From contig NIVC01002558.1 in assembly GCA_002269645.1 (NCBI GenBank), positions 1 through 64,000 of the forward strand: a stretch of 64,000 bases of DNA. Reading direction: 5' to 3'. This stretch comes from Macrostomum lignano (lineage: Eukaryota). A model generated the notes under the pieces. The model was given only the letters and a program-made list of their open reading frames with translations, had not been told where the DNA came from and did not search any database. Numbering within the stretch: position 1 is the first letter of the stretch; each line of letters starts with the position of its first letter. A program made the translations under genes and the position numbers. Shown here one piece after another: positions 1-12,431 of this stretch.

Positions 1-10
1 TCTTTAAAAA

Positions 11-833
11 ATGGTAAGGCAAAACACGAATAAGATATTTCCAAATGATCCTTTTCTTTGTTTAGTAATCGGAGGATCAGGTAAAGGAAAAACACACTTT
101 GTTACGATTTATTAACAACAGATGGAATGTTAGACTATAATAATTAATAATTTATACTAATAAACCTAGAATAAAATATTATGAATTTCTTAAACATGGA
201 TTAAAAAACAAATTAAAAAAGATGTCTTGTTTAGAATGTTAAGAGCATATGAGCAATATGAGGATGATGACGAACCGCGATTTAATCTAGCAGACATTGA
301 GGATTTATGTAAAACAATGGCACAACAGCCAGAAAACATCACCGATCGCCCCGAAGGGTCGCGGACTTCGTCCGATCGCGCCCCAACTGTTAGAGTATCA
401 ACCGCGATTAGCCTATGATCAAATTCCAAAACATGATAAAACACTAATTATTTTTGATGATTGTATTAATGACGGTGATCAAGAATTGCAAAAGGAAATT
501 TTTGTTAGTGGTAGAGGAGATGGAATTGGAGCTTTTTCTTACTCAATCCTTTAGAGAATTAGAATCGATTATAAAAAGAATGCAAGTTGTTGTGTAATGT
601 TTGATTTAGATAATATGATTACAAAATATTCACGCTAGATTTAATCCCGGATTGGATGCAAAACCATTTAAAAGTATGTGTAAAAAATTTGGGATGATAG
701 CCAATACAAACATATTTATATCAATCCGAGGTTAGAAAGGAAACATAGAATTTTAACAAATTTGATAAAAGAAGATAATGAGGAAGAAGAGATCGTGCAT
801 AGCACGCGACTTCGTCCGATTATTTCCCACTAT
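11..833 (+). CDS. A32/FtsK-like genome packaging ATPase (frameshifted in this sequence)
   Basis: ATG at 11 gives MVRQNTNKIFPNDPFLCLVIGGSGKGKTHF (Walker A, 71-94). ORF 297-554 has KTLIIFDD (Walker B) and VSGRG (A32 motif). Several frameshifts; the end coordinate is approximate. Confidence 0.85.
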
Positions 834-837
834 AAAA

Positions 838-1616
838 ATGACTACAAATTTAAATACTATAAAACAATTGGTAGATCGAACTAATTCAAAATTTAGTACA
901 ACATTACAGTTTATAATGACAACCAGCGAGCAACGGATTCAATTGCGCGATCCATTACAACTTGATCAAAGCCTAAGTTATCAAATAGGTTTAATTCTAT
1001 TTTCGGTTTTCAACATGCCTCAATTAATTAATGCAACAAATAATCAATTTAGATATTCTAAAGATTCCGGAGCCAATTGGACAACATTTAGCGTTAACCC
1101 AGGAGCGTATAGCTATACTGATTTGAATGCTTATATAGAAGGAGAATTAACAACTAATGGTGATTGGGTAGCAGGAGCAATTGTTATAGGTGTTGATTTA
1201 CCGTCTGGCAGATTCACACTATCACTAGGATCCGGATATCAGGTTGATTTCACAATTGCAAATTCACTCAGAACCATACTTGGATTTAATTCCCGAATAG
1301 TTACCACATCAAGCACCGGTGATACAGTGGAAATATTGAGGGGGAGTCAATACAATTAATATAACAACCGACATATCAAACGGTTATATAACAGATAATA
1401 ATGGAGTTTTGGTTCAACGTGGAATTATTTATTCAATCCCATTTCTTGCTGTTCCAATTGGAGAGAAAATGATTGTATCACCTCAAACCCCAATATATTA
1501 CCCATTAAATCAATATAGTTCAATCAATTTATATTAGGATTGTAGATGAAAGCGATAGATTAATAAGTTTTGGTGGGCAGTCAATAACAATAATTTTACG
1601 TATAAAACAGGTTTAG
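838..1616 (+). CDS. Minor capsid protein (penton, single jelly-roll), one frameshift near 1340
   Basis: Motifs FSVFNMPQLINATNNQFRY, PGAYSYTDLNAYI and LGF. After the frameshift it continues as VNTINITTDI...ILYSIP...PQTPIYYPLN...RIVDESDRLISFGGQSITIILRIKQV*, typical of Polinton/virophage pentons. Confidence 0.8.
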
Positions 1617-1635
1617 TACTGTCCGTATAGTAAAA

Positions 1636-1845
1636 ATGGGTAATCGAACAACATGTTCGCGTGCAAAGCACGATAATAATAATAATTTAATAAAAAAACA
1701 ATCAGAAAAAGTTAAAAAAGCTGAAGATAATTACGAACTAGAACTAGCAAAATTAAGGCAGTTACAAGCTGATAAAATAAGAAAGGAATTGTTAAAACCC
1801 ACACCTACGAAACTAACTAAAACCAAGAGTTTTTCAGGAACATAA
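1636..1845 (+). CDS. Small basic coiled-coil viral protein, unknown function
   Basis: 69-aa ORF between penton and protease, with the same AAAAATG start context as neighbouring viral genes. Confidence 0.45.
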   Translation: MGNRTTCSRAKHDNNNNLIKKQSEKVKKAEDNYELELAKLRQLQADKIRKELLKPTPTKLTKTKSFSGT

Positions 1846-1846
1846 A

Positions 1847-2285
1847 ATGACCATGACGTGGGATGATTTTAAACAAAGATATGGAACGGACACAACAAGC
1901 AATATCGAATTAACAAATTGGGCGAGGCAGTTAAAAATAAAACCATTCAGATGTGTTATGCGAGATGAGATCAAAGACTTACCACAATATGGATCTTTCA
2001 TTGTTAATATTGAAACAACAAAAGAAAATGGTGTTCATTGGTCGCAGTTTATTCAAACCTAAACTTGTTTATTTTTTTGATTCATACGCGCTTCCTCCGT
2101 TACAGGAAATAAAAGACAAATTTAATCATACTAAAAATCGTTTATGTGGAGATCATCACGAACAATTTCAAACATTTGATAAAAGTTATTGCGGGCAAGC
2201 GGCGTTGTATTTTTTATATCGACTTTCGAATGAAGCTCGTGTAAACCCCGAAGTATTTAGAGATATTTTAGACTCTATAAAATAG
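1847..2285 (+). CDS. Adenain/Ulp1-like maturation cysteine protease (frameshifted near 2045-2060)
   Basis: Catalytic motifs GVHW, YFFDSY and QFQTFDKSYCG, split across ORFs 1847-2062 and 1953-2285. Confidence 0.88.
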
Positions 2286-2295
2286 ACAGTAAAAA

Positions 2296-10461: not shown

Positions 10462-10546
10462 TTTATAGAATAAAATTTATATAATGTTTGAATTATTGAT
10501 TTTTTAATTTTGTGTTTTTGGTGTCCAGACCCTCCCCCCCAGGAGC

Positions 10547-11533
10547 CTATTCGAGATCTGCTTTTGGTAACAGTAATCCATTGCCCATAACGTTTGAATT
10601 TAAGAAAATTCCTGAACCTGCTTTTGGTCTCATTTCGAGATATAATCCGCTTCCGTCGTGTTTTTCAATGATATTAAAATCTTTTCCTAATTTATTAAAA
10701 ATTTTCTGAACAGCTGGTCTAAAATTGGATCCAATATTGTCAAAAAATCCTTTAGCTTTCTCACCCGTTTTTTCTAAAGTTTGACCAAATTCATGTAGTT
10801 TATCTGCTACAACTCCACTTCCTTGGGTTGTTCCTTTTAGTACCAAACCATTCCCGTGATTTGTTCCTTGCAAGAGTAAACCTTTTCCGGCTGCTAACCT
10901 AGCTTCTGCATTTCTTTTTTGCTCTGCTGTTGCTGAACTACTATTAATGGTATCAATAAGTTTCTGTTTGAATTGTGCGTCCTGCGTTATTTGCTGTCTT
11001 TGAAATTCTGCATCTCGTTTGGCTTTTTCGTCCGCAGCTTTTTTGTCATTTACTGCTTTTGCAATTCCAGCTGCTCCGCCAGCAACTCCTCCAGCTGCTC
11101 CAATTCCTGCAAAAATTATTGGGAGCAAAGCTGCAAGGGGTAAGATTCCCCCCTGTTTCGCTCTTAACTCTCCTAGCTGTTTTACATTATCATGAATTCT
11201 TTTTCCGGCTAAACCGACTGCTCCAGCTGCACCAAGTCCTAAAAGAAGCGGTAGAATGGGTAGTAATCCGCCGTCCTTTTTAGTGTGAGTCTCCATTAAA
11301 AATTTCACATCGGAGTCTGTCAACCTATAATTTCTGCCGCGATTCTTAAAGGATATTGGCCTTCCTTCTTGTGCATATTTTGCTGCGAGTTTAAATGTAT
11401 CGATGTCGTAGTCAAACTTTTTACCTAATCGATCCAATCTTTTTAACATTGTGTGGCTATGTTTATTATCATCTAGATCTAAAGTATCTACAATTTCTCC
11501 TATAAAATATAAGCGGTCGTTATCTGTGTCCAT
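10547..11533 (-). CDS. Gly-rich virion core/membrane-active precursor protein (adenovirus pX-like segments)
   Basis: GGLLPILPLLLGLGAAG and GGILPLAALLPIIFAGIGAAGGVAGGAAGIAKAV resemble the adenovirus pX C-terminus. Eight GG or GxG motifs followed by hydrophobic residues. Confidence 0.65.
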   Translation of the reverse strand: MDTDNDRLYFIGEIVDTLDLDDNKHSHTMLKRLDRLGKKFDYDIDTFKLAAKYAQEGRPISFKNRGRNYRLTDSDVKFLMETHTKKDGGLLPILPLLLGLGAAGAVGLAGKRIHDNVKQLGELRAKQGGILPLAALLPIIFAGIGAAGGVAGGAAGIAKAVNDKKAADEKAKRDAEFQRQQITQDAQFKQKLIDTINSSSATAEQKRNAEARLAAGKGLLLQGTNHGNGLVLKGTTQGSGVVADKLHEFGQTLEKTGEKAKGFFDNIGSNFRPAVQKIFNKLGKDFNIIEKHDGSGLYLEMRPKAGSGIFLNSNVMGNGLLLPKADLE

Positions 11534-11543
11534 TTTTATATTG

Positions 11544-11942
11544 TTAAAATTTCTTTAATCCTTTTCCACCTTTAATAGTATTTAACATTTTATTAAAATC
11601 CTGAATATCTTTATTACTTATTGGTGCGCTTTTCGTGGGGGTTTCTGTTGGTTGTGCGGCTTGTGCCAGCTTTAAATCTTTTATTGCATTTATTTGTGAG
11701 AGGGTGTCGTTAAAATCTCTCAATTTCTTTAGTTCTTCTGCCGCTCTAGCTGCTTCAATTCCGCCCTTTACGGCGTTGGTTATAGAGCCTGCTGCAGAGC
11801 CAGCTTGCCCTATAAGCCCCATATTGTCTTTAACAAAATTTGCTGCTGTTCCAACCACATCAAAAAGCCCCTCACCTCGGTATTCAACTGGGTCTCCTAC
11901 CTGCAATTCATTCAGATTTTGCATATGTGTAACGTGTGTCAT
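11544..11942 (-). CDS. Small virion core-like protein with an amphipathic segment after a GEG motif
   Basis: YRGEG-LFDVVGTAANFVKDNMGLIG... and C-terminal IKGGKGLKKF. Confidence 0.55.
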   Translation of the reverse strand: MTHVTHMQNLNELQVGDPVEYRGEGLFDVVGTAANFVKDNMGLIGQAGSAAGSITNAVKGGIEAARAAEELKKLRDFNDTLSQINAIKDLKLAQAAQPTETPTKSAPISNKDIQDFNKMLNTIKGGKGLKKF

Positions 11943-11980
11943 TTTTTGTTCTATTTTTAGTAACAGAAAAAGATTGTCTG

Positions 11981-12078
11981 CATTCCATTTAGACCAGATT
12001 TTAGACCAAATTTTTGAAAACGAAAACCAAAACGATAGTCTAGTTTTGTTTGGTCTAAAATCTGGTCTAAATGGAATG
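11981..12078. repeat. Perfect 30-bp inverted repeat with 38-nt loop
   Basis: cattccatttagaccagattttagaccaaa (11981-12010) is the exact reverse complement of 12049-12078. Confidence 0.95.
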
Positions 12079-12160
12079 TTGGGTGGGTAGGTGAGCTGAC
12101 TATAAATAGCTTCTATTCTTTCCGACCCTTCGCGCCTGCGGCGCGGGCAAGGGGTTATAG

Positions 12161-12431
12161 AGTAGTAGTGTATAAAAAGACGCTTCTAGATCAGACCTTA
12201 TTTTAATGACCGTTTTTATGGTCTTAAGAGGGGGGACGCGAGGGGGGTGTTGGGGAGTGTTTGGAAGTGTTGGGAAGTGATTTTTATTGTTAGGGGTGAT
12301 TATGGGTGATTAGATGTGTTAATGGTGTTTAGATGTGTTTTTTTATTTACCCCCCGTGTCCCCCCTCTAGACCCTTAAAACGGTCATTAAAAAAGTGCTC
12401 TGGGTCTAGAAGCGTCTTTTTATATACTACT
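12161..12431. repeat. Polinton terminal region with a nested, inverted ~85-bp copy of the terminus
   Basis: 12164-12246 (agtagtgtataaaaagacgcttctaga...ttttaatgaccgtttt...gaggggggac) matches the reverse complement of 12350-12431. Confidence 0.9.

Follow-up and report, generated by a model that had tools for sequence, protein, structure and literature searches.

The window analysed here, 64,000 nucleotides from the start of contig C2558 (NIVC01002558.1), opens with the right-hand part of an integrated Polinton (Table 1). This copy is probably the product of a recent insertion by a large Polinton family which would replicate as a linear, protein-primed genome and is likely still packaged in icosahedral particles. 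A broader picture, in which the family is an actively circulating, integrating DNA virus of a laboratory flatworm, of a capsid lineage other than that of the adintoviruses, with ends rebuilt from a fold-back, receptor-binding lectin domains swapped in the manner of phage tail fibres and a 30-bp hairpin element parasitising it, is put forward only tentatively. The original prediction, made from the letters alone, had described a near-complete Polinton/adintovirus-like virus whose virion genes suggested a capacity to form particles. The copy proves less than near-complete, as it spans only about 70% of the family length and is frameshifted as assembled.

The AT-rich block on which that prediction was built is real. 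GC content is 26-40% across positions 1-12000 and 49-59% immediately past the element (host DNA at 39-48 kb is equally AT-rich), and the element terminus reads ...TATACTACT|CAGGGC, an AGTAGT-type end with its last base at 12431. The window starts at the contig edge, which truncates the element and leaves the capsid gene, the integrase and the left terminal inverted repeat (TIR) outside. All three were found upstream, where they had been expected: a genome pattern search with the predicted left junction gave a single match (C3710:71500; control 0), and this end of contig C3710 carries the left TIR, an open integrase of 325 residues, an HNH-like gene and the capsid gene, whose frame is broken there as assembled, together with a 4.5-kb overlap with window positions 1-4522. 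The overlapping stretches are 97.3% identical, single-base gaps (28 of 39) being concentrated near the window start. The host flank is found twice more (C1645 and C994), each time empty of the element and with CAGGGC present once. One of three homologous host sites is thus filled, with the 6-bp duplication that had been predicted. The TIR pair of the C110 copy is 99.4% identical. The insertion lies inside a ~23-bp host minisatellite (window 12432-12500; C3710:70500-71505).

The family to which this copy belongs is large. Its terminal 28-mer has 53 exact genome matches and its terminal 20-mer 244 when one mismatch is allowed (two per TIR). For the capsid protein at least 87 matches were scored (83-100% identity), 62 of them full-length without a stop, and for a segment of the protein-primed family B polymerase (pPolB) at least 131, of which 24 come from two or three other Polinton families and about 107 are the family's own. 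These counts are lower bounds, and some entries are one insertion assembled twice. Whole elements measure 17.7-18.3 kb, with outliers of 23.2 kb (a 5.3-kb internal duplication) and 8 kb. Matched 6-bp duplications flank four of the five whole elements checked, and 15 pairs among 58 distinct termini share a 6-bp flank (six single-contig elements, nine cross-contig pairs), against a chance expectation which we estimate at about 0.4, one palindromic self-match having been dropped. Long element pieces reach a depth of 298-476 in run X14, compared with 20-24.5 for the host flank, which fits many copies and is not a copy number. Splicing of the host MATE gene makes run X8 look like RNA; the run's even cover of the multi-copy element could be DNA carry-over. 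The longest contigs in runs X1, X8 and X14 are of whole-element length (17.7-18.1 kb), and their content could be anything. At C110:524403-535074 a 5.3-kb tandem duplication (99.9%) runs from the penton end to the accessory block and is either real or an assembly artefact, and at C349:312303-320328 an 8-kb element with a matched duplication keeps the left end and has an unrelated interior with an open reading frame (ORF) of 198 residues.

The further Polinton families (C781:189751-205721, C273, C412, C620, C105, C25 and C1449) have pPolB 48-54% identical to that of the family, a capsid protein that matches PF21738 and a fibre with two F5/8-C domains. A GC-rich, integrase-bearing, retroelement-like block (C273:203500-207500) lies within one of these sister-family copies.

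As to its kind, the element has pPolB, an rve integrase, a packaging ATPase and a double-jelly-roll capsid protein, with TIRs of hundreds of bp, AG...CT ends and a 6-bp duplication. The last two are established characters of Polintons/Mavericks. In an open natural copy pPolB is 1327 residues long and has 1994 database matches; its exonuclease and polymerase motifs are invariant or nearly so among 47 aligned relatives, it carries an endonuclease VII-like insert, and it has no PF03175 match at E<=1. The closest relative is 55% identical and named relatives (crinoid, gastropod, spiders) are 40-44% identical; by these identities the polymerase has no tight match to a described element, in line with the prediction. 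Residues D211, C214 and H322 are retained in 46-47 of the 47 relatives, a pattern which we take to be an OTU-like motif; no Pfam profile or PDB match to an OTU domain was obtained on pPolB. The integrase matches PF00665 with 33.2 bits (cut-off 32.6). Its 32 open copies are 305-339 residues long, 29 of them stopping within five residues of a GSFYENQ motif and three slightly longer, and all 32 lack a chromodomain (no chromo match at E<=1).

The capsid protein (490 residues) is more distant from known sequences. A word-indexed search returned three relatives at 41-49% identity and an exhaustive search 73, nearly all below 30%; viral and metagenome contigs yielded none. The protein itself has no Pfam double-jelly-roll match, and 31 of the 36 relatives scanned match PF21738. 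Its structural model aligns with iridovirus, mavirus, PBCV-1 and Sputnik capsids (Foldseek E 7e-13, about 10% identity), which places the modelled protein in the double-jelly-roll fold class. Against adintovirus and MELD entries of BFVD the structural alignment gives 10-12% identity. Such distances speak, if indirectly, against a hexon that BLASTp would pair reciprocally with the reference hexons of adintoviruses.

Buck et al. (2024, PMC11071296) define adintoviruses by three characters: a PolB with an OTU domain, a hexon recognisable by BLAST and a chromodomain on the integrase. Because its integrase has no chromodomain, the element classifies by sequence as a Polinton with a Beta-type PolB, adintovirus-like and not an adintovirus in the strict sense; the Polinton half of the predicted label thus stands and the adintovirus half does not in its strict form. 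By the wording of that source, the family may belong to the 'meldviruses'. Starrett et al. (2021, PMC8502044) state that every eumetazoan phylum has adintoviruses; occurrence in a flatworm alone is therefore unsurprising. Compared with the Beta adintoviruses of these two sources (PMC8502044, PMC11071296), the family shares an animal host, a PolB without PF03175, the OTU-like motif and a pX-like core protein, and differs in the missing chromodomain and in a capsid with only the low structural identity given above. Its general plan is that of the Polintons/Mavericks as given by Krupovic et al. (2014, PMC4028283): a length of 15-20 kb with TIRs, genes for pPolB, an rve integrase, an A32/FtsK ATPase and a putative cysteine protease, and a double-jelly-roll capsid gene with a penton-like gene one gene off. 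Unlike them, the flatworm family has a capsid protein that lies under Pfam detection and exceeds 29% identity with only a few environmental proteins, a 268-nt fold-back in each TIR, in-frame double hairpins and two reassorting lectin fibres. The core of the element is of a known kind; its ends, its inserts and the absent chromodomain set this variant apart.

The ends are unusual in that every TIR repeats its own first 82 or so bases in inverted form, and the last 268 nt form a long stem (stability z -16.6; 0 of 100 shuffles as good). The fold-back is found in 55 of 58 termini, the remaining three having no match to the inner-arm pattern. The eight variable columns of the first 27 bases agree between the arms in 392 of 440 cells, compared with 303 +/- 11 when inner arms were shuffled among termini (0 of 5000 shuffles reached the observed value), and in 92 of 104 cells compared with 60 over 13 distinct types. 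Among 17 ends picked to span the subtypes, both-side changes occur at 8 of the first 27 pairs, and fixed arm differences just past base 27 are retained in all 17. Co-variation was counted on related sequences, and kinship inflates such counts; each paired change still had to reach both arms despite relatedness. A flip/flop model of hairpin transfer was rejected, as no flipped end was present: the element-internal sequence follows the inner-type arm in 59 of 59 cases. In the one sister-family whole element examined (C781), the 136-bp TIR has no such fold-back and its ends are not AG..CT.

These patterns lead us to favour, by a narrow preference, repair of the terminus by templating on the displaced single strand. 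The chief alternative, that the fold-back consists of paired inverted protein-binding sites (origin or integrase) kept alike by gene conversion or by selection for binding, is a serious though less probable one. It accommodates the absence of the inverted orientation and the arm mismatches at one to three of the first 27 bases in 34 of the 55 termini, a point which weakens repair; it fits less well with changes that are strictly complementary at eight positions clustered in the outermost 27 bp and with a long stem that remains pairable across subtypes. Parvovirus, poxvirus and Streptomyces linear replicon ends likewise have a self-complementary terminus which possibly serves end completion. 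The flatworm ends, unlike these, show no flip/flop and belong to an element with a protein-primed polymerase and an integrase. Termini with mismatched arms would be a natural marker for end repair.

A second variable part is the fibre, composed of 19-residue shaft repeats (phage tail fibre-like), a middle domain and an L-lectin-like C-terminal domain (Atlas 0.90, a lead). The middle domain occurs in two types that are 28% identical, each in at least 40 copies: type B matches F5/8-C (E 2e-11), and type A, which is that of the window copy and discoidin-like, does not. Among copies with a fibre call and an open frame, the fibre type changes 10 times on the capsid tree compared with 10.2 in shuffles (the starred branches require at least four changes) and 8 times on the integrase tree compared with 9.6; on these trees it reassorts freely against the capsid gene. 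The HNH slot and the subterminal cassette vary between copies as well. Identical mosaics on separate contigs (C573/C2328 and C283/C2379) indicate that the mosaicism is partly real. A single-sequence model of the fibre fold reached a predicted local distance difference test score (pLDDT) of 30. An ORF of 372 residues near the C1547 fibre was considered as a third fibre and rejected, since it resembles a mariner-type transposase; this ORF (C1547:268013-269131), inserted after the fibre, is presumably mariner-like.

A continuing particle stage is suggested by selection. Pairwise median ratios of nonsynonymous to synonymous divergence (dN/dS), scored on the open frames of 45 fetched stretches, were 0.13 for the major capsid protein (MCP; 35 open copies), 0.10 for the penton (30), 0.17 for the ATPase (22), 0.21 for the protease (30), 0.10 for the integrase (32), 0.34 for ORF222 (37) and 0.20 for the fibre (9). 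By this measure the virion genes are under purifying selection and the family likely still makes particles. The predicted capacity to form particles is accordingly upheld for the family and not for the window copy. It is doubtful that the family spreads only intragenomically as a self-synthesising transposon, or needs a helper virus, with a capsid module left from an earlier phase or from repeated invasion. Such a history could account for the 8-kb internally deleted copy with its matched duplication (C349) and would suit a particle stage suggested by sequence only (the runs being contigs, none recorded as RNA), and the wide synonymous distances between copies (MCP dS as high as 0.65) could have arisen outside the flatworm genome; yet near-identical young copies retain an open capsid frame (62 of 87), and both fibre types occur on capsid genes 99-100% identical, which makes the exchange recent.

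Several points weigh against a family that is still packaged and exchanging parts. As assembled, the window copy is frameshifted in four or five genes, the C632 whole element has unmatched flanks, and the four runs are contigs of guessed type. Bias affects the dN/dS set: 40 of its 45 stretches were picked via capsid matches and are mostly open, only 9-37 of the 45 were scored per gene, and the purifying selection may predate arrival in the flatworm genome. The mean pLDDT of the capsid model is 52. On the tree of the penton, which lies nearer the fibre, fibre type is weakly clustered (6 changes compared with 8.2; 42-54 of 500 shuffles), and chimeric assembly of near-identical repeats may inflate the mosaicism; possible chimerism is seen in C632, and the two halves of the window insertion differ by 2.7% in their overlap.

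The element is also studded with short inserts. An indel census with no structural filter showed a 30-bp peak of 35 events, exceeded only by 38 at the 15-bp cut-off, and most of these 30-bp indels consist of a 15-nt and a 13-nt hairpin flanked by AT on each side, that is, 28 bp plus an AT duplication, for a net gain of 30 bp. A structural scan gave 104 records, which fall into 34 flank groups; 23 of the groups have AT at either end, and for 10 of them other copies carry an empty allele that is shorter by exactly 30 bp. On one reference copy inserts occupy 18 sites in both orientations, 14 within ORFs, the element being 90% coding. They add ten codons to 5 of 22 open copies of the ATPase, 4 of 30 of the protease, 3 of 30 of the penton and 1 of 32 of the integrase, and to pPolB too, and are absent from open copies of the capsid (0 of 35), fibre (0 of 9) and ORF222 (0 of 37). 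Of the three inserts in the window, two adopt the predicted fold, which none of 200 shuffles equalled, and the third is unremarkable. The stems occur in several complementary forms; as the scan selected for pairing, this carries no independent weight. For one subtype the genome holds 140 matches (control 0), and all 20 checked lie inside element DNA, while the host part of the window holds only one chance-like match and viral contigs hold none of the hairpin patterns. Two hairpin matches in one GC-rich bacterial gene were judged to be chance.

The double hairpin is, we consider, probably a mobile micro-element. The alternative, in which the double hairpins would be fixed features of long standing (terminators or packaging signals) lost by precise slippage between the AT repeats, is improbable. 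Extruded hairpins would bring both ATs together and make precise loss easy, and empty alleles alone give no polarity, but identical 28-mers are found at unrelated sites in both orientations, in ATPase, pPolB, integrase, penton and protease and often in a minority of copies. Moreover, none was found in seven regions of the sister families, and translations of the inserts share no 7-mer with 367 fetched proteins. Double-hairpin elements were reportedly described in Allomyces mitochondrial DNA by Paquin and co-workers in 2000. These and the GC clusters of yeast mitochondria resemble the inserts in being short, GC-rich units of two hairpins in AT-rich DNA, with structure conserved above sequence and polymorphic presence. 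The flatworm inserts differ, in a comparison by description, in sitting in a nuclear virus-like element, in being exactly 30 bp and in being mostly intragenic.

Five frameshifted genes and a run-off at the contig end might suggest a dead relic, a contaminant or a chimera of the assembly. This reading is refuted already at the family level and highly improbable here, since both junctions agree with the two empty host sites, at least 75% of the element's words are present in 20 runs from 7 studies (none recorded as RNA) and, at the best-supported 12 of 69 places, short-read contigs from four studies lack the small, one-base gaps of the window. The frameshifts are, on this comparison, likely to be assembly error; these contigs pool many copies, which leaves the intactness of the window copy itself unproven.

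The following course of events would bring these features together. A copy would be released and replicated by strand displacement, and the displaced single strand would fold its last 268 nt, with the inner arm serving to repair or re-copy the outermost 27 or so. This would account for both the joint arm changes in the outer bases and the fixed differences further in. Co-replicating genomes would recombine and shuffle fibre, HNH and subterminal cassettes, and the 28-bp double hairpin would be copied into AT sites, where it would be tolerated because a net 30 bp preserves the frame; the copying would probably proceed by template switching on single-stranded intermediates. The ATPase would package the DNA, the protease would mature the core proteins, particles would bind cell-surface sugars via the exchangeable fibre domain, and the integrase would return genomes to the germ line.

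To our knowledge, particle production by animal Polintons and the survival of protein-primed ends through integration and release are open questions. A small flatworm that can be cultured and carries some hundred copies, in which the capsid genes are conserved, one insertion is polymorphic and the termini vary naturally, brings both questions within reach of observation. The 30-bp inserts would represent a mobile micro-element inside a virus-like genome and, if this is true, a frame-preserving hairpin of this size would be among the smallest mobile elements possible. Virions of Polintons are inferred from gene content by Krupovic et al. (2014, PMC4028283). The literature searched, whose coverage does not extend to the founding Polinton papers, yielded nothing on Polintons in the genus Macrostomum, nor on such hairpin inserts or fold-back TIRs in Polintons. 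Neither DNA feature is described in the accessible parts of PMC6431247, PMC11296320 and two 2026 preprints, and the Starrett supplement file, possibly incomplete, contains no Macrostomum, Schmidtea, Platyhelminthes, flatworm or Dugesia.

Table 1. Features of the Polinton copy and its immediate host flank, in window coordinates.
Feature	Position	Strand	Remarks
Right ~70% of integrated Polinton	1..12431	.	rest = G000:C3710:71506 to contig end
A32/FtsK-type packaging ATPase	11..800	+	tblastn; three frames in window copy
Double-hairpin insert, in frame in ATPase	345..376	+	absent from 17/22 open ATPase copies (strict definition)
Penton-like minor capsid gene	838..1613	+	breaks near 1340 and 1520
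69-aa basic ORF	1636..1845	+	contains double-hairpin insert
Double-hairpin insert in 69-aa basic ORF	1645-1672	.	structural scan
Adenain-like protease	1847..2285	+	break near 2045
Fibre, type A	2296..4325	+	breaks near 2590, 3250, 3850-3980
218-aa two-helix membrane protein	4668..5324	+	open frame
Three accessory ORFs: 170 aa (-), 110 + 119 aa (+)	5292..6538	.	no family match
pPolB, protein-primed family B polymerase	6512..10461	-	breaks near 9650, 8470, 7940
Double-hairpin insert, in frame in pPolB	7220..7251	+	structural scan
Core-like protein with xxGG/ cleavage-type sites	10547..11533	-	open frame
132-aa core-like ORF	11544..11942	-	open frame
Perfect 30-bp inverted repeat in subterminal cassette	11981..12078	.	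sequence
Right TIR, 308 bp	12124..12431	-	97.7% identity to left TIR on C3710
Terminal fold-back	12164..12431	-	outer arm 12350-12431, inner inverted arm 12164-12245, ~100-nt unpaired loop
Target-site duplication CAGGGC, 6 bp	12432..12437	+	empty-site comparison
Host MATE transporter gene	12852..15460	+	start ~420 bp from element; spliced in run X8

The genes that had been listed (ATPase, penton, protease, fibre, pPolB and core-like) were all located, by ORF listing and by tblastn with unbroken natural proteins of the family; the first five are each broken across two to four frames in the window copy, a point absent from the original prediction. The tblastn spans are 11-791 for the ATPase, 838-1613 for the penton-like gene, 1847-2282 for the protease, 2296-4322 for the fibre, 4668-5321 for the membrane protein, 10461-6527 for pPolB and 11533-10550 for the core-like gene. 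An unbroken ATPase copy matches Pox_A32 with 30.6 bits (cut-off 22.8; E 3e-7). Two of the labels stand in part. The penton-like gene is named from its position after the capsid gene and the ATPase, which its size and place fit, and the protease from its position and from His, Asp, Gln and Cys motifs retained across two families, a catalytic pattern which we assume to be of the adenain type; neither protein has a match in Pfam, PHROGs or PDB sequence searches, and no relatives of the protease were found in viral contigs. The membrane protein is presumably PW/cupiennin/SLATT-like, and a cupiennin-type membrane protein is, we assume, shared with Beta adintoviruses; its sister-family homologue matches SLATT_1 below threshold (E 0.027). 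The core-like protein matches adenovirus protein X below threshold (E 0.01), and an SseC match on it was discarded as under the cut-off. The subterminal cassette is swapped for an unrelated version of about 345 bp in 5 of the 33 fetched loci with both flanks. A high-depth joint at 11971-12124 occurs in all four runs, and assembled copies give no explanation for it.

The element is, as had been stated, intronless as far as tested, the one exception being a weak GT..AG joint (3415-3492) within the fibre. There a 76-nt GT..CAG stretch (3418-3493) is skipped in one contig of the RNA-like run X8, with a depth of 6.7 and a short side of 28 letters; skipping would shift the frame ahead of the lectin domain, and a matching deletion was absent from all 10 fetched loci with both flanks. 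The joint is a lead only.

The predicted flatworm host is borne out by a host gene at 26 kb, whose three best protein matches are flatworm (Macrostomum), one partial match reaching 97%; by these protein matches the host is a Macrostomum-type flatworm. Elsewhere in the host part of the window, a minus-strand RNase H-integrase ORF of 615 residues, which we take to be Gypsy-like, lies at 17155-19002 among microsatellite-rich DNA.

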